This document shows positions 2,015 through 21,753 of a DNA stretch of 22,986 bases, piece by piece. The stretch lies in the IMG/VR virus record IMGVR_UViG_2519899565_000007. The stretch is one strand, 5' to 3'. A program made the position numbers and the translations under genes. The notes beneath the pieces were generated by a model. The model made no database searches, was not told the origin of the DNA, and saw only the letters and a list, made by a program, of their open reading frames with translations. The stretch is from a virus. Lineage: Duplodnaviria; Heunggongvirae; Uroviricota; Caudoviricetes. Within the stretch, counting starts at the first letter, position 1. Every line of letters starts with the position of its first letter.

Positions 2015-2307
2015 GTCCCTTTTCTGAATGATAGCCATTCGAAAAATGATGACATTCCACCGCAGACAATAGCAAAGATGATCCCACCAAAGAAGAGAAG
2101 GCCAGCCTGCCACCACTCCCACCGCCATACATCCACAGCGCCAACCATACCAACAATCGCTCCAACAAATGGAATATAGCTCACGATGAAAGCAATGGGG
2201 GCTGCAATTATCCAGTGCAATCCCCACCATGATTCAAGCCCAGCCATAATTGCTGCCAACTGAAAAAGACCAACGACGATATAAACAATGAATCCTATAG
2301 CTTGCAT
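2011..2307 (-). CDS. Small hydrophobic membrane protein (98 aa, about 3 predicted TM segments)
   Basis: ATG at 2307 with AGGTGA 5 nt upstream; sequence dominated by hydrophobic stretches (FIVYIVVGLFQLAAIMAGL, IIAAPIAFIVSYIPFVGAIVGMVGAV, LLFFGGIIFAIVCGG). Confidence 0.6.
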   Translation of the reverse strand: MQAIGFIVYIVVGLFQLAAIMAGLESWWGLHWIIAAPIAFIVSYIPFVGAIVGMVGAVDVWRWEWWQAGLLFFGGIIFAIVCGGMSSFFEWLSFRKGT

Positions 2308-16287: not shown

Positions 16288-16584
16288 TCACTCCTGTTCA
16301 CTGGCCTCTTTGGCCATCTTCAAATACTGTTCAGGGCAATGCGCCATAACGCGCTGAAACAGTTCCAGCGCCAGATTGCGTTGCCCCTCATTAAATGCCA
16401 TTGCCATAGCATCCATCGGAGAGATAGCGGAAAACACCCGGCCTTTCTCCAGCACAGACCAGACAACGCGACGCCCCTGTTCACTGCTCATGACAAAGCG
16501 AATGTCATCAATTTCACGCTGTGCCATGTCACGTTGCTTACGGGCGTTTTCTTCTTTCAGTTGATCGTCTTCGTAATCTGTCAT
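16288..16584 (-). CDS. Hypothetical small head-module protein (98 aa)
   Basis: ATG at 16584 overlapping the portal stop (ATGA); AGGGTGGG upstream. Confidence 0.55.
   Translation of the reverse strand: MTDYEDDQLKEENARKQRDMAQREIDDIRFVMSSEQGRRVVWSVLEKGRVFSAISPMDAMAMAFNEGQRNLALELFQRVMAHCPEQYLKMAKEASEQE
16521..16532. repeat. Copy d of the palindrome family: GTGCCATGTCAC (1 mismatch), flanks match copy a (TGTG-CATGTCACGT)
   Basis: Direct comparison with 2001-2016; lies inside the 5' part of the 98-aa gene. Confidence 0.5.
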
Positions 16585-18260
16585 TGTGATTGCCCACCCT
16601 GACCACTAACTGCATTCGCCATAGCTGACAAAACACTCGGATCCGAAGTTTTAGCTTCGCTTAGCGTCTTGGCACCCTGTGCCGCCGCCATCCCCATCGC
16701 CATCATTTGTTGCTGCTGTTGCTGCTGTGCCCGTTGCTGGCGAGCCTGATCAACCTGTTCCTGCGGAACAATGACGGTTGGAGACACTCCGGACATATCA
16801 GCGAATGCATCGATCGCCTGATCAACGTTGAGTTTGTCGAGAGCTTCTGGTTTCGCTTGCGCAAGTTGACCAATGAAGTTAACCGTGGACGCCAGACTGG
16901 ACAGGCCGATAGACTTCTGCGCCTGAGCCATGACGGAAATGTATTCGACCTTCAGGGGCATGCCTTCCATCGCGTCAGGCGGTGGCGGCAGCATGTTTTT
17001 ACGCACCATCATCGAGAAAGCGCGGTCAATGAGAGGATTAAGACATTCGTCGTTCAGACGCTCCAGAACCGGCCCCAACATCAGAAGTTTTTCTTCTTTC
17101 ATTTCGATCACCGCTTCAACAGGCATCGAGCGGGTATTGATGTTCTGCAACATCATGAACAGATCGACAAAGTAGGCGCTGTTAATGATTTGACGAGTGT
17201 CCTGAATGTCTGCTACCAGATCTGCTGTACTGGGGTTAACCAGATAAGCAGGCCTGAAACCATCCTGACCAGTAATCTGATCGATATACGTGATGTCGCC
17301 AGGAAGAAGGGAGGCGCGCTGATTCTTGAGGGAAGTCGGAGCAACCATCGGCGGATTGGTGGCTTTATCAATCAACTGCGACTTGCGCTTCTGAAGAAGC
17401 TGCAATGCCTTAACAGGTCCAAGCGCCAGCATACCCGGGCATGATGATCCATAAACATCTTCGCCGTTAACTTCCCAGCGCGGAGCCATAATTGGAAACT
17501 CATCGAATCCGGACTCACGCAACAACTTGTCGTTATCGCCGCCAACCTCGTAATAAACCGATTTGAATGGCTTGTTCTTGCTATCCAGCTTCGATGTATC
17601 GCGGTCAATGTTCGGGTAAACCGAATGCATCACCTCAATCCACTTCTCGTAGGTGCCAATTTCCCACATGCTTTTTACGTATTCGCTGACGTTATTTAGC
17701 CCGAACTCCTGAACAAGCTGACGAACAGTCATAGAGAACTTGCGAAAACAGGTGTCCACACTGCCACGAGGTGAGTTAGCCAGGTAGTAACTACCTATCG
17801 GGAATGGCATTGTGCGAATGATGTCCTCGTCATCCTCCAGCACCGCCATTGCACCAGTGCTGTATGTGCCGAGGCTTCCGTATAACTGCGGAAGAGACTG
17901 GTAGAGATTCGAATTATTGAACATATCATTCATGCGGTTCTGCACCGCCTCAAGCCACAACTTAACAGGGCCATAATCCATCATTTCAGGATCTGGCGTA
18001 GCCAGGCGAAACCACGGACGCGCGGGGCTTGTGATGCCTGACATCATGCCGCTGGCGAGAGTGCGCGCCGCCATAGTCCCGGTCGAATCAATAATGCGTG
18101 TATTGCGTCGATCGTTACGGTTGACCTCAGAAGTCAGAAAGCGGGAACCACGCGGGTTGATGTAATCACTCAACTCGCGCCAGTGCGGCTCGAACGACTG
18201 ACGCTCGCTTTCAAGTTGTGCGAACTGTTTGTTCAATCGCTCTTTAGTTGTTTCCGCCAT
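16581..18260 (-). CDS. Portal protein (559 aa), T7 gp8-like head-to-tail connector
   Basis: Size and position after the large terminase; C-terminal Gln/Met-rich tail (QQRAQQQQQQQMMAMGMAAAQG) resembles the T7 gp8 C-terminus as recalled; GGAG RBS. Confidence 0.8.
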   Translation of the reverse strand: MAETTKERLNKQFAQLESERQSFEPHWRELSDYINPRGSRFLTSEVNRNDRRNTRIIDSTGTMAARTLASGMMSGITSPARPWFRLATPDPEMMDYGPVKLWLEAVQNRMNDMFNNSNLYQSLPQLYGSLGTYSTGAMAVLEDDEDIIRTMPFPIGSYYLANSPRGSVDTCFRKFSMTVRQLVQEFGLNNVSEYVKSMWEIGTYEKWIEVMHSVYPNIDRDTSKLDSKNKPFKSVYYEVGGDNDKLLRESGFDEFPIMAPRWEVNGEDVYGSSCPGMLALGPVKALQLLQKRKSQLIDKATNPPMVAPTSLKNQRASLLPGDITYIDQITGQDGFRPAYLVNPSTADLVADIQDTRQIINSAYFVDLFMMLQNINTRSMPVEAVIEMKEEKLLMLGPVLERLNDECLNPLIDRAFSMMVRKNMLPPPPDAMEGMPLKVEYISVMAQAQKSIGLSSLASTVNFIGQLAQAKPEALDKLNVDQAIDAFADMSGVSPTVIVPQEQVDQARQQRAQQQQQQQMMAMGMAAAQGAKTLSEAKTSDPSVLSAMANAVSGQGGQSQ

Positions 18261-18274
18261 TTCAATGACTCCGG

Positions 18275-18481
18275 TTACTGACCAAGCAGCGTTTTACCGC
18301 TGGTATTAGCGGTTGATGTGTCGCCCTGAGAACCGGTAAGCAGCGTAGAACTACGACCAGCAGCAGCGCGACGGCGACGTGTTTCTTCGTCGCGGGCATC
18401 AACAACGGCGGCATCCTGCTCCTGTGGTGCTGCCTGAACTTCTGGTGTTGCAGGCACTGATGGTGAGCTACCCATGCACAT
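18275..18481 (-). CDS. Hypothetical small low-complexity protein (68 aa) immediately upstream of the portal gene
   Basis: ATG at 18481 with GGAG 8 nt upstream; its initiation region (ACGGAGTCATTGAT-ATG) nearly duplicates the portal one (CCGGAGTCATTGAA-ATG). Confidence 0.45.
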   Translation of the reverse strand: MCMGSSPSVPATPEVQAAPQEQDAAVVDARDEETRRRRAAAGRSSTLLTGSQGDTSTANTSGKTLLGQ

Positions 18482-18508
18482 ATCAATGACTCCGTACGCA
18501 ATTAAATT

Positions 18509-18587
18509 ATTACCAATTTAACCACATATGATTTATTTATCGTAGATAGTTGACATTTAACGCACAAATTATTACCTTTCAGGTAAT
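18509..18587. repeat. Copy 2 of the shared regulatory element, with a 12-bp insertion carrying TTGACA (18550-18555); perfect 17-bp palindrome ATTACCTTTCAGGTAAT (18571-18587)
   Basis: See copy 1; lies between the minus-strand 68-aa/portal genes and the plus-strand tRNA unit. Confidence 0.7.
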
Positions 18588-18908
18588 CAAAGGGTTCATT
18601 CCGGTTATTAACCTGACTGGCTTGTCGTTAAATTGAACAGGTGGAGTGAGCTTTTATTTTGAGCAGTACGGCGTATGGCACATGCGCCGATAGCGGTCTG
18701 GATACGTTTAAGGGGCACCCTCCCTTGCTCGGGCAAACGAACCAGGTAGCCGGGATGTGCAAGTCGAGCGGTTTTATTCCGCGCACGGGGATTCACCATC
18801 CCGGCGATTCGGTGTGACGCCTCGGAAGAGACGAGGGTACAACGATGAGAGCATTTATGGAGCCGCGACAAAGTGTGGCGCCTTAACAGGCTAAGTGCTC
18901 TCAGCGTT
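18588..18908 (+). other. About 320 bp ORF-free, GC-rich, hairpin-rich segment upstream of the tRNA; candidate structured RNA or long tRNA leader
   Basis: No plus-strand ORF above ~25 codons; several local stems (e.g. CCTCG-N7-CGAGG at 18820-18836); followed directly by the tRNA. Confidence 0.3.
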
Positions 18909-18985
18909 GTGGCATTAGCTCAGTTGGACAGAGCAACCGCCTTCTAAGCGGTTGGTCGCAGGTTCGAATCCTGCATGCCACGCCA
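18909..18985 (+). tRNA. tRNA-Arg (anticodon UCU), argU-like, CCA encoded
   Basis: Hand-folded cloverleaf: acceptor GTGGCAT/ATGCCAC, U8-A9, D-arm GCTC-AGTTGGACA-GAGC, anticodon arm ACCGC-CTTCTAA-GCGGT (UCU at 18943-18945), T-arm GCAGG-TTCGAAT-CCTGC, discriminator G, CCA. D, anticodon and T arms match E. coli argU as recalled. Confidence 0.9.
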
Positions 18986-19028
18986 GAATCACGCCTAAGG
19001 ACCGTGATGCCAGAAGTTCCAGGTGCTT

Positions 19029-19070
19029 GGCGGTGATAGTTTCCCTTGAAGGACTATCACCGCCCTTTTT
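19029..19070 (+). terminator. Strong intrinsic terminator after the tRNA (12-bp perfect stem plus CTTTTT)
   Basis: GGCGGTGATAGT (19029-19040) pairs with ACTATCACCGCC (19053-19064), followed by TTTTT at 19066-19070. Confidence 0.85.
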
Positions 19071-19100
19071 ACAGCAGGACGCCATTGCGATGACTTCATG

Positions 19101-19116
19101 CTGTAAACCCGTACAG
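19101..19116 (+). promoter_or_regulatory. Weak LexA-like site CTGTAAACCCGTACAG (CTGT-N8-ACAG), between the two tandem terminators
   Basis: Correct half-site spacing but the centre is GC-containing and the flanks are non-consensus. Confidence 0.25.
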
Positions 19117-19148
19117 CCACGGAAAGCATAACTCATTGCTTCCAGTTC

Positions 19149-19172
19149 GCCCGGTTCGCCGGGCATTTTTTT
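19149..19172 (+). terminator. Second intrinsic terminator/attenuator (GCCCGG-UUCG-CCGGGC followed by A and U7) ending 11 nt before the start codon of the 123-aa ORF
   Basis: 6-bp GC stem with UUCG tetraloop and seven Ts (19166-19172); then AAGGTGAG (SD) and ATG at 19184. Confidence 0.7.
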
Positions 19173-19183
19173 AAGGTGAGATT

Positions 19184-19555
19184 ATGAACGACCAGCAAAT
19201 CGAAAAAGAAATCGTTGAGAAAGGCAAAACGGCACCGCGCGTTACGCCAGACCATATCGAAGGCATTATTGCTCAGGAGGCATATTTCACAGCAGAAGAT
19301 GGTGCCTTTGGCAAAGCCATAAAAGCGAAACATACTGGCGGAGAGGTAAACTACCAGCCGCACGAATCACTTTCTCTGCTGACGTTCTGCGTCCTGGTGC
19401 TGCGCAACGGCTTCACCGTCACCGGAGAGAGTTCCTGTGCAAGTCCGGAAAATTTTGATGCAGAAATTGGTCGGAAGATTGCCCGGCAGAATGCTGTAAA
19501 CAAAATCTGGATGCTCGAAGGTTACTTGCTGAAGCAGAAGTTAAGCGAGCAATAA
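19184..19555 (+). CDS. Hypothetical 123-aa protein (moron), antisense to the structural operon
   Basis: ATG with AAGGTGAG SD; flanked by intrinsic terminators on both sides; no family recognised by eye. Confidence 0.6.
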   Translation: MNDQQIEKEIVEKGKTAPRVTPDHIEGIIAQEAYFTAEDGAFGKAIKAKHTGGEVNYQPHESLSLLTFCVLVLRNGFTVTGESSCASPENFDAEIGRKIARQNAVNKIWMLEGYLLKQKLSEQ

Positions 19556-19574: not shown

Positions 19575-19602
19575 CAGCCAGCCTATGAGCTGGCTTTGTT
19601 TT
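19575..19602 (+). terminator. Intrinsic terminator (AGCCAGC-N6-GCTGGCT then TTGTTTT) at the convergent 123-aa/large-terminase junction
   Basis: 7-bp stem 19576-19582/19589-19595 with T-tract 19596-19602; A-tract upstream may give weak activity on the minus strand. Confidence 0.7.
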
Positions 19603-19645
19603 ATCCTCACCAGAGGATATCAACGACATTATCCCCACCAGCGGA

Positions 19646-21121
19646 TTAAGCATAAGGGTCATAATCCGTTATGGCCCTTCCCTGCTGGCTTTGCTGTCCT
19701 GGTATATTTATGCGTTTCGAGACCGGGAAAGCAAACGTCAGCAGTAGCGCATCGCCTTTACCAGGAGAACGCCCAAGACGCTCTTTGATATCTTCCTTCG
19801 GTTCGATAACGATTTTACCGTCCACACGAACTTTGTACTCTGCCGCCGACAGGTCGTCTGCAGTTTCTTGGTCATCCAGCATGCCGCCCAGCCTCAGCCA
19901 TGTCTTACATGAGTTGAACATCTCCCCACGCTTGTTAAGCATCTGCGGGTCAGTGGACGCACCGCCGAACGGAACAAGTTGCCATGTACGTCCCCAGCCA
20001 TCACCGATTGACTTCAAACCGGTTCCATAACCGAAGTCGATGAACACCGCGTCAGCCTGATACTGGTCTTCAAAGTCAGCGATACGCTTCGCCATAATCA
20101 GATCGTCGGTGGTCTTGTTACCAGTCCATAGCACCTTACTGTGCAGCCCCTGCCGCAGGTATATCACAGCGTCATCAACGCCGGAGTATGCCGGGTCAAC
20201 GCCGATTATCACCGGAGCATGTGCAACCTGCGCAGCGGTTACCACCCGTTTCATTGCCTCGTCAGTAAGGCCGGTAGGGATAAACTGCAATTCAGATGCA
20301 TCCGGGAATATGCCGCGCACACGGATTTTAACGAAGTCGCTGTCTTCCCCGTAGTCATCAACCCATTTCTGCAACTGCTGTTTGTTAGTGCCTTCCACCG
20401 TCCGGCTGTCAATCTGCGCAGTTTTCCAGCGGTGTTTATATTTGCGGAAACATTCGCGGAAACGCCCGGTGTTACGTGTAGGGTTTCCGAATGCCACCCA
20501 GATAATCTCAGTGTCTTCGTCCGTCAGCGCACCCTCTGCTACCTCCCACACCAGATCGGCAATGTTGGATGCTTCGTCGAATACCACGATGATGCGTTTG
20601 CGCTCGTTGTGTAGTCCGGCGAATGCCTCAGTGTTGTGCTCAGACCAGGGGATTGCGTCAGCTCGCCACCGCTTGTCGTGCCCAGGGTCATTGCTGTACA
20701 TCGCGGTAGCGGTACAGGTAAACCAGTCTTTCGTGATAGCAAGGTTCGACCACTTGATAATTTCCGGCCAAGTCTTCGTTCGTAGCTGGTTTTCGGTGTT
20801 GGCGGTCACCACGACCTTACAATCCTCGCAAGTGGACATGCCCCAGTTGATCAGCATTGAGATGAATGCGGATTTACCAATACCGTGACCAGAAGCACGT
20901 GTCAGCATAAGCGGCTGATATCGCGTCTCTGGATTCTGCAGGTGATCACGTATCTCTCGGAACGCATCGGCCTGCCACTGACGTGGACCGGTGGCATGTG
21001 CCAGTTCAGTACCCTCTTCCCCCCACGGGAACGCATAGAGGGCATAGCCAAGCGGATCGTGAGTGAACCCTGCAATATCCTCGATTAACTGCTCTTCAGG
21101 AGATAACGCTGTATCTGTCAC
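19646..21121 (-). CDS. Terminase large subunit (491 aa)
   Basis: Size and position; ATPase-like segments (VVVTANTENQ, Walker-B-like VVFDEASN) and a C-terminal Asp-rich nuclease-like region (VIIGVDPAYSGVDDAVIY); GTG start at 21121 overlapping the small-terminase stop (GTGA). Confidence 0.85.
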   Translation of the reverse strand: MTDTALSPEEQLIEDIAGFTHDPLGYALYAFPWGEEGTELAHATGPRQWQADAFREIRDHLQNPETRYQPLMLTRASGHGIGKSAFISMLINWGMSTCEDCKVVVTANTENQLRTKTWPEIIKWSNLAITKDWFTCTATAMYSNDPGHDKRWRADAIPWSEHNTEAFAGLHNERKRIIVVFDEASNIADLVWEVAEGALTDEDTEIIWVAFGNPTRNTGRFRECFRKYKHRWKTAQIDSRTVEGTNKQQLQKWVDDYGEDSDFVKIRVRGIFPDASELQFIPTGLTDEAMKRVVTAAQVAHAPVIIGVDPAYSGVDDAVIYLRQGLHSKVLWTGNKTTDDLIMAKRIADFEDQYQADAVFIDFGYGTGLKSIGDGWGRTWQLVPFGGASTDPQMLNKRGEMFNSCKTWLRLGGMLDDQETADDLSAAEYKVRVDGKIVIEPKEDIKERLGRSPGKGDALLLTFAFPVSKRINIPGQQSQQGRAITDYDPYA

Positions 21122-21721: not shown

Positions 21722-21753
21722 GTGGTAATAGTTACCGTTGTGGTAATAGTACC
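21722..21753. repeat. Tandem imperfect direct repeat GTGGTAATAGTTACC / GTGGTAATAGT-ACC just upstream of the small-terminase start
   Basis: Two ~15-bp units separated by GTT; each contains GGTAA-N-TTACC-like half-sites related to the ATTACC/GGTAAT half-sites of the 17-bp palindrome. Confidence 0.55.

Follow-up and report, generated by a model that had tools for sequence, protein, structure and literature searches.

A portable terminator-bearing non-coding module precedes a hypervariable accessory-gene slot in epsilon15/phiV10-like phages

The DNA analysed here (the window, 22,986 nucleotides of IMG/VR virus record IMGVR_UViG_2519899565_000007) belongs to a phiV10/epsilon15-like podophage of the genus Uetakevirus, and its segment 18600-19700 shares 94-95% identity with Escherichia phage phiV10 and its relatives. 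Our subject is the leader at 19071-19183, which follows one predicted terminator, T1, and contains a second, T2, ahead of a plus-strand gene for a 123-aa protein (19184-19555). An earlier note, made from the letters of the window alone, had described this interval as the structured leader of that gene, and all the motifs it named are found in the window where it had placed them. The structural genes of the region are on the minus strand and comprise the small terminase, the large terminase (19646-21121), a small gene (18262-18501) and the portal (16581-18260). Between the large terminase and the small gene sits a plus-strand block that holds a tRNA-Arg(UCU) and the 123-aa gene, the latter convergent with the large-terminase gene. 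Comparison with related loci identifies the leader as a portable non-coding module common to hundreds of epsilon15/phiV10-like phages, in which interchangeable accessory genes, here called cargo, follow T2.

The elements of the module are closely packed on the plus strand. T1 (19029-19070, with its stem-loop at 19029-19064) was returned by a terminator scan and consists of a 14-bp stem, an 8-nt loop, and then a C and five U residues (CTTTTT). Its U-tract overlaps the 5′ arm of a hairpin, HP-A (19068-19107), of the form TTTACAGCAGGACGCCAT-TGCG-ATGACTTCATGCTGTAAA, which has 18 pairs and is imperfect, with three non-canonical positions. The ACAGCA/TGCTGT inverted repeat to which the earlier note had drawn attention is indeed present, but was under-described, as it lies within a 9-bp perfect repeat, TTTACAGCA/TGCTGTAAA, and forms the base of this larger conserved hairpin. 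A variable linker (19108-19148) follows, for which RNAalifold predicts no pairs, and which contains a semi-conserved GCCAnGGAAGGCA motif and the 13-mer CATTGCTTCCAGT. T2 (19149-19172), also returned by the terminator scan, comprises the hairpin GCCCGG-UUCG-CCGGGC (19149-19164) with six G-C pairs and a UUCG loop, a single A (19165) and seven U residues (19166-19172). The Shine-Dalgarno (SD) sequence AAGGTGAG occupies 19173-19180, directly behind the U-tract, and the ATG start codon lies at 19184-19186. Because the gap between the U-tract and the ATG measures only 11 nt, no promoter fits into it, as the earlier note had argued, and the gene can be transcribed only by polymerases that pass T2. 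The RNA 19066-19190 has a more stable fold than all of 200 dinucleotide shuffles (z = -3.1). A third plus-strand terminator, T3 (19576-19605; 19576-19595 in the scan), closes the cargo gene before the terminase, and the same hairpin is annotated as a terminator in the phiV10 record. Neither the terminator scan nor a reading of the sequence revealed U-tracts on the minus strand for T1, T2 or T3.

T2 is a genuine conserved terminator adjoining the ribosome-binding site, which bears out the earlier note; its termination activity is predicted from the sequence. It recurs in 180 loci, representing 131 unique variants, and the U-tract has exactly seven U residues in 116 of these, while the A spacer is kept in 128. 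In the Salmonella-type T2, a GCCCAC/GTGGGC stem takes the place of GCCCGG/CCGGGC, with two pairs compensated (GC<->AU and GC<->CG). Compensatory changes of this kind were seen in 10 of 36 representatives, and 97.7% of the T2 cells in the alignment are paired. Since both stem changes occur in the same ten sequences, they probably trace back to one evolutionary event. The GenBank record of epsilon15 already labels T2 as a rho-independent terminator. The junction T7-AAGGTGA(G/A)-N3-6-ATG is found in 113 of the 131 variants, ahead of unrelated open reading frames (ORFs), and because the SD sequence is the same whatever gene follows, it must be counted as part of the shared platform. The 18 variants without an abutting SD include cargos that bring their own promoter. 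In these, a TACC-N5-GGTA operator-like repeat lies directly after T2, one example of such a promoter reading ATGACC-N17-TATAAT, so that T2 there ends the upstream unit.

To define the conserved structure of the module, 36 non-redundant representatives were aligned and folded with RNAalifold. Exactly two structures were returned, HP-A and T2, separated by a 40-60-nt linker that has no conserved structure. The 20 pairs of the two hairpins are standard pairs in 98.9% of cases, compared to 33-39% when the 3′ partner is slid, and their covariation score of 0.171 (0.088 in shuffles) was attained by none of 500 shuffles. Among 30 unique HP-A variants, two positions covary, namely pair 11-30 (A-U in 16, G-C in 12, G.U in one) and pair 12-29 (A-U in 20, G.U in seven, G-C in three). 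The apical loop is hypervariable (TGCG, TCCG, CGCG, CACG, CCCG, TGTG, TACG, TGCA), and one locus, L149, carries a 5-nt insertion in it. The covariation, the hypervariable loop and the tolerated insertion together favour a folded single strand over a double-stranded DNA site for a dimeric protein. HP-A was also compared with integron attC sites, REP elements and CRISPR-repeat mimics, and did not match their consensus sequences. When genomes were scanned for HP-A, it was found in six Enterobacterales prophages, along with one unrelated perfect palindrome in a Flavobacterium.

The stem of T1 is likewise maintained, as pairing is retained in the stem variants GATAG/CTATC, GGCAG/CTGACC, ACCAG/CTGGT and CACAGG/CCTGATG. 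Epsilon15 and the minimal loci have a deletion of the left T1 arm, and loci of the BUCT711 type have a different terminator instead. In one IMG/VR locus, L082, the T1 loop is inverted, reading TCCTTCAAGGGAAA where all other copies have TTTCCCTTGAAGGA; this looks like a flip via recombination between the stem arms.

We found the module in 36 records of phages from Escherichia, Klebsiella, Enterobacter and Salmonella, the last with epsilon15 and SPN1S among them. Among the matches listed, at least 120 IMG/VR contigs also carry it, as do prophages of six Enterobacterales species representatives. It also occurs in 504 of 5426 complete E. coli genomes (~9%), where nothing is annotated under the module. 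At the same genomic position, Klebsiella phage ST512-KPC3phi13.3 carries this tRNA together with T1, the leader and T2; its homology to the window stops right after the U-tract, and a 173-aa Tad2-like gene (PF11195) follows. A copy of the 123-aa gene with 98% identity, in turn, is found in another context in an Stx2a phage, with no T2 ahead of it. The leader, which the earlier note had assigned to the 123-aa gene, is not specific to it and forms a common platform before cargo genes of at least 25 kinds.

The ORFs found first behind the T2 U-tract fall into 29 clusters and at least 25 different cargo gene families, and the loci concerned (including L002, L005, L010, L014, L033, L037, L057 and L107) define a hypervariable accessory-gene position. 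In the window, the 123-aa protein matches Pfam family PF13876 (Phage_gp49_66) with E = 4.6e-34 and 117.2 bits against a cutoff of 27, and covers the whole model (1-82). A direct comparison with the solved structure of SPO1 Acb4 (9e4w) gave a weak match (E = 0.0023). PF13876 has been equated with the Acb4 family of cyclic-nucleotide sponges (PMC11722364), and by sequence the 123-aa gene is a homologue of the nucleotide sponges of that family. Two of the other cargos resemble Tad2 (PF11195). The remainder have no Pfam family and match only PHROGs of unknown function, and most of these slot genes are candidate anti-defence genes. At locus L005 (Enterobacter phage Tyrion), an int-alpA RNA (RF02996) lies between two cargo genes (2066-2130, plus strand; 44 bits against a gathering score of 35.8).

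Natural deletions give an indication of which parts can be spared. The minimal loci L048 and L169 consist of a promoter, 128 nt, HP-A, T2 and the cargo, with no tRNA and no intact T1, and epsilon15 similarly has neither the tRNA nor the left T1 arm. T2 is absent from L009 and L078, in which HP-A runs directly into a cargo gene with its own SD. L150 has no T1 and no HP-A, L044 no linker, and L128 neither T1 nor the left base of HP-A. Going by these variants, no single element appears to be indispensable in every genome, and some of them may be defective prophages. Decaying copies of T1, HP-A and T2 were seen at L011 (Klebsiella phage KO-TP1, ~1480-1610) and L012 (ST11-VIM1phi8.2, 1503-1655), where they lie in the nin region of lambdoid phages, upstream of a gene for a 264-342-aa protein; the same gene occupies the Uetakevirus slot with its own promoter. 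The module copies were apparently dragged along with this downstream gene, and they are evidence that the module travels with its cargo between unrelated phages.

Given that transcription of the cargo would have to cross T2, the position of its promoter is of interest. As one of two options, the other being terminator read-through, the earlier note had named a promoter inside the leader, which the scans do not bear out. At the standard threshold, the scan placed no sigma70-like site on the plus strand of 17929-19308, and a relaxed scan of the window likewise gave none in 18660-19175. When 145 unique variants were scanned under relaxed settings, nothing recurrent of the sigma70 type emerged from T1 to the start codon, whichever strand was read. 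HP-A is bounded at both ends by TTTACA hexamers, one of which follows T1; these were considered as -35 elements, and neither has a usable -10 at 16-18 bp on either strand; the candidate -10s, TGACTT and TGGCGT, both lack an A at position 2 when read from the sequence. A sigma32-like combination in the T1 loop, CCCTTGAA-N12-CCCTTTTT, was rejected as it is unconserved and lies in the very loop that is inverted in L082. Inspection of the leader by eye gave no matches for sigma54, sigma28 or sigmaE.

The nearest conserved promoter upstream of the 123-aa gene is a predicted sigma70-like site at 18550-18587 on the plus strand, found in the relaxed scan, with a -35 TTGACA (18550-18555), a 17-bp spacer and a -10 TACCTT (18573-18578). 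A palindromic operator, ATTACCTTTCAGGTAAT (18571-18587), overlaps this promoter such that the -10 lies inside the palindrome. In 120 of 125 unique loci, the arrangement TTGAC[ACT]-N15-ATTACC-N5-GGTAA precedes the module on the same strand. Its -35 is conserved (TTGACA in 94, TTGACC in 21, TTGACT in five), with a spacer of variable sequence. Seven ATTACC-N5-GGTAAT sequences are marked as "repressor" sites in the epsilon15 record, three of them adjoining the repressor gene, and TACC-N5-GGTA occurs twice in the window, where 0.14 occurrences are expected. From the conserved motif and the epsilon15 annotation, we infer that 18550-18587 is a repressor-controlled promoter, and consider it reasonable to take it as a working one.

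Between this predicted promoter and the tRNA lies the core of a structured non-coding RNA of ~240 nt (18670-18908, plus strand), which is also present in relatives without the tRNA. RNAalifold assigned it 47 pairs in an alignment of 16 diverse relatives, nine of them with compensatory changes, for example GAGAGCA/UGCUCUC to AAGAGCA/UGCUCUU. Invariant core segments (GGTAGCCGGRATGTGCAAG; CACCATC..GGTGTGAC-CCTCGGAAGAGACGAGG) are split by variable hairpin inserts. A hairpin at 18670-18688 is stable on the plus strand only (-8.35 versus -2.97 kcal/mol), and a structured RNA containing such a hairpin supports plus-strand transcription from the promoter at 18550-18578. No Rfam family matched 18670-18908 at E<=10. 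The tRNA-Arg(UCU) at 18909-18985 on the plus strand, identified by ARAGORN and by Rfam (tRNA, 73.3 bits), is found in 72 of 125 related loci and is missing from epsilon15 and others. Directly 3′ of it lies a further conserved plus-strand hairpin, AATCACGCCTAAGGACCGTGAT (18987-19008), which is kept in relatives where another insert stands in for the tRNA, with a GUUGUGGUG/CACCACAAC helix closing it where the acceptor stem would be. Rfam searches of the window and five relatives, at gathering and at E-value thresholds, returned only the tRNA, chance-level terminator matches and the int-alpA RNA of Tyrion, and no family of Rfam 15 matched the leader module of HP-A, linker and T2.

The earlier note had also pointed to a weak LexA-like site in the leader. 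The sequence concerned, CTGTAAACCCGTACAG (19101-19116), has a CTGT-N8-ACAG core, the first half of which is the 3′ arm of HP-A. This core occurs three times in the window (0.38 expected). Compared by eye with the 20-nt LexA consensus TACTGTATATATATACAGTA, the site has eight mismatches and a G+C-rich centre, AAACCCGT. It is found in 47 of 131 module variants, the second half-site being missing from the other 84, and Klebsiella relatives carry CTGTAAACCCTGTGACACC at this position. The relaxed scans of the window and of the 145 variants placed no promoter-like site over 19101-19116. A textbook SOS box, TACTGTATATTTATACAGTT, is located elsewhere in the window, at 1683-1702 (core 1685-1700), and we regard the non-consensus, unconserved leader site as a chance match. 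The true SOS box is adjoined by a repressor-type operator, ATTACCTTTCAGGTGAT (1630-1646), both lying upstream of a small ORF (ATG at 1723). The product of this ORF matches phrog_450 and, weakly, an anti-repressor PHROG (4e-7), and the epsilon15 record shows the same arrangement of SOS box, operator and small ORF. The region 1630-1725 probably holds the switch by which LexA controls the antirepressor in phages of this group. As the true SOS box precedes an antirepressor-like gene, any SOS link of the 123-aa gene would only be indirect, passing through that gene.

Since no promoter was found between T1 and the ATG, transcription of the cargo would be left to polymerases that start at the repressor-controlled promoter. 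The reading that we prefer, at roughly even confidence, is that such polymerases, on passing T1 and T2, provide the only expression of the cargo. The plus-strand unit, which lies between the large terminase and the portal and is read against the structural genes, runs in the order predicted promoter (18550-18587), ~240-nt RNA, tRNA-Arg, T1, HP-A, linker, T2 and cargo, and polymerases starting at the promoter would read through T1 and T2 into the cargo. In the lysogen, the bound repressor would keep the cargo off. Upon induction, the SOS box would release the antirepressor, which would inactivate the repressor and switch the cargo on; for this last link we assume a course of events like that of the SPC32H system. 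T1 and T2 would scale the expression of the cargo down, and all three terminators would shield the convergent terminase gene from antisense transcription. The layout of the unit, its conservation and covariation, the missing promoter consensus and the variety of slot genes are observed, whereas the activity of the promoter, the strength of the terminators and the read-through route are inferred here from the sequence. The read-through option of the earlier note is plausible and now has comparative evidence behind it. Of the conditional expression suggested in the earlier note, the principle survives by way of an upstream promoter overlapped by a repressor site, and not by way of a leader promoter, LexA or attenuation.

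Several points weigh against this reading. Two good-looking terminators in series should leave little transcript, and a low transcript level fits poorly with sponge proteins, which would presumably be needed in abundance. The promoter has a weak -10 (TACCTT) and its operator is palindromic, which leaves the perfect, conserved -35 and a spacer of 17 bp as the only guides to its orientation. The scans were of the sigma70 type, and a promoter with another consensus, or one dependent on an activator, would escape them. Finally, HP-A is strongly conserved, yet it has no part in a read-through model. Because two good terminators in series should leave so little message, antitermination and riboregulation have to be kept as rivals. 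In a broader form, it is possible, and we put this forward as a tentative proposal, that the platform (HP-A, linker, T2 and perhaps the ~240-nt RNA) is an undescribed phage riboregulatory device. It could be an antitermination or processing gate, or a family of small RNAs (sRNAs) with diversifying seeds, one of them a RyhB mimic, with the terminator doubling as the entry point for cargo.

An active antitermination mechanism would resolve the first of these difficulties. A cis-acting RNA, either HP-A or the upstream RNA, alone or together with a phage or host factor, would render polymerase from the repressor-controlled promoter terminator-resistant. Only polymerases lacking this modification would halt at T1 and T2, and lytic growth would yield cargo efficiently. 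Two strong terminators would then no longer conflict with the need for an intact and diverse cargo to be expressed, and the mechanism would draw on a covarying conserved hairpin that is always found just upstream of T2 (but downstream of T1), as well as on the conserved structured RNA of the upstream leader. A helix-strand variant just before the tRNA, UGCUCUUU, moreover resembles boxA in our reading. That stretch, however, is the 3′ strand of a covarying helix and not a single strand, and the hypervariable loop of HP-A with its tolerated 5-nt insertion is unlike boxB, the loop of which is recognised. The minimal loci and epsilon15 are without most of the structured RNA and L150 is without HP-A, yet all of these keep T2 and a cargo. 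We therefore consider active antitermination unlikely.

To a similar degree improbable is the proposition that HP-A to T2 (or promoter to T2 in the minimal phages) constitutes an Hfq-type sRNA, the cargo being a passenger expressed by terminator leak, like setA behind sgrS. The architecture is sRNA-like, with a hairpin, an unstructured linker of 40-60 nt, and a GC hairpin followed by a U-tract of the near-constant length of seven described above, and T2 closes a self-contained unit where cargos bring their own promoter. In addition, the 13-mer of the linker (19134-19146, plus strand; CAUUGCUUCCAGU as RNA), just upstream of T2, is identical to the conserved core of the iron-stress sRNA RyhB, and related 8-12-mers occur in 89 of 131 variants, CATTGCTTCCAG, a 12-mer, in 57 and TTGCTTCC in 32 more. 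The other 42, in contrast, have neither and carry unrelated linkers; the Rfam RyhB family (RF00057) matches no better than chance (18.4 bits, gathering score 55, E = 1.9), and the RyhB-like stretch is able to pair with the upstream GGAAGGCA. The sigma70-like scans revealed no promoter belonging to such an sRNA, the interval lies behind T1 in the tRNA-bearing phages, and a full-text sequence search found no published sRNA containing sequences of the module.

HP-A might also act on the opposite strand or as DNA. It would then be, for example, an RNase III or stability hairpin in a putative late minus-strand transcript from terminase to portal, or else a protein or packaging site, T1 and T2 would be stacked insulators at a convergent junction in which accessory genes collect, and HP-A would be irrelevant to the 123-aa gene. 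As RNA, HP-A is more stable on the minus strand in 25 of 30 variants (-16.1 versus -13.0 kcal/mol), with 88% of the cells paired as against 83% on the plus strand, whereas T1 and T2 have no strand bias in stability. A conserved C.A mismatch at pair 15-26 becomes U.G on the minus strand; the terminators, having no minus-strand U-tracts, could be passed by late transcripts; and the authors of the epsilon15 record annotated RNase III sites nearby on the minus strand. The strand signal nevertheless rests on two positions, and the signals conflict, since pair 12-29, which alternates between A-U, G.U and G-C, has its wobble on the plus strand while stability favours the minus strand. The 5-nt loop insertion speaks against a double-stranded site bound by a dimer. 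On balance, we think a function confined to the opposite strand or to the DNA doubtful at best.

Classical attenuation, which the earlier note had coupled to its leader promoter, receives no support from the leader. A candidate leader peptide of 13 aa (ATG at 19090) has no SD and its frame is broken by indels in relatives. Inspection for an antiterminator alternative to T2 revealed no upstream complement that covaries with the GCCCGG and GCCCAC forms. Pairing of the linker with the translation start, hinted at by the minimum free energy fold, was not borne out when 93 unique pairs were compared with shuffles (mean z = +0.34). A LexA-regulated or other promoter within 19071-19148 with attenuation at T2 thus has the CTGT-N8-ACAG spacing and a TTTACA hexamer to its credit, and is highly improbable in view of the missing -10, the degenerate and mostly incomplete LexA site, the real SOS box at 1683-1702, and the lack of a leader peptide, covarying antiterminator or anti-SD pairing.

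The neighbourhood of the module offers two further observations. A second TACC-N5-GGTA operator-type repeat, at 21733-21745, immediately follows a minus-strand terminator (21783-21766) and comes shortly before the probable true start of the small terminase gene; it corresponds to the first of the "repressor" sites in the epsilon15 record. Its position suggests that the repressor may directly control the packaging and structural operon. A minus-strand ORF of 83 aa (18915-19166), listed as PhiV10p04 in phiV10, overlaps the tRNA, T1, HP-A and T2, and indels in relatives break its frame; it is almost certainly not a gene.

A terminator in a leader, taken alone for one gene, is ordinary, and the module is best appreciated by comparison with known systems. 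In lambda, PR'-tR' (6S RNA) with Q, and StxS in Stx phages, an intrinsic terminator likewise stands between the sole promoter and the genes, so that mostly short RNAs are made and read-through is needed. By analogy the module may work in a similar way, but here the predicted promoter lies ~600 nt upstream and would be operated by a repressor, a structured RNA and a tRNA lie in between, and the downstream gene is a single swappable accessory gene and not a late operon. No Q-like factor or qut site was identified, an antiterminator gene not having been searched for and the early region lying outside the window. The nut site of lambda, with N, and the put site of HK022 would be the models for active antitermination; HP-A is a conserved hairpin upstream of T2 and downstream of T1, with a hypervariable loop. 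The attenuators of trp, his and T-box leaders, and riboswitches, likewise carry a terminator in the 5′ untranslated region, ending within a few nucleotides of the ribosome-binding site, but there is no leader peptide here, no antiterminator covarying with the T2 stem and no Rfam aptamer. With sgrS-setA and RyhB, the module shares a GC hairpin and U7 directly upstream of a coding gene as well as the 13-nt identity to the RyhB core; it differs from them in having no promoter of its own, in its low Rfam RyhB score (18.4 against 55) and in a seed-like region that is unconserved in a third of the variants.

In genomic terms, there is a likeness to the morons of HK97 and lambda, which are also single accessory genes in opposite orientation between structural blocks, with a terminator of their own (here T3) and a content that varies among collinear phages. 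The 123-aa gene differs from these in having no own promoter; 113 of 131 junctions are directly behind the terminator, and the own-promoter layout is found in a minority. Anti-defence hotspots similarly combine a fixed position with interchangeable small genes, two of which here are from experimentally defined sponge families (Acb4, PF13876; Tad2), but in the present case a conserved non-coding platform precedes the slot, and most cargos are of unknown function. The module would thus work like a terminator-gated leader, while genomically it resembles a moron or anti-defence hotspot. A full-text literature search for sequence strings of the module found no paper, and in the literature searched we found no description of a conserved non-coding platform (HP-A, T2 and a shared SD) before the slot; nor did the titles and abstracts of the ten best-ranked of 403 literature matches point to a paper on a Uetakevirus anti-defence slot.

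The module is chiefly of value as a conserved marker of a hypervariable accessory-gene slot and as the platform from which that slot would be expressed; it also draws attention to two conserved RNA elements that are as yet uncharacterised. HP-A and the RNA at 18670-18908 show covariation and have no Rfam family, which makes them candidates for new phage RNA motifs. The T2-SD junction on one side and the terminase gene on the other provide a handle for harvesting candidate anti-defence genes, from prophages that are carried by ~9% of complete E. coli genomes and also occur in Salmonella, Klebsiella, Enterobacter and Citrobacter. If the proposed model is true, one fixed non-coding platform would express whatever accessory gene lands behind T2, and these phages would be a case of a temperate phage that silences its cargo in the lysogen, by a repressor and stacked terminators, and releases it on induction.

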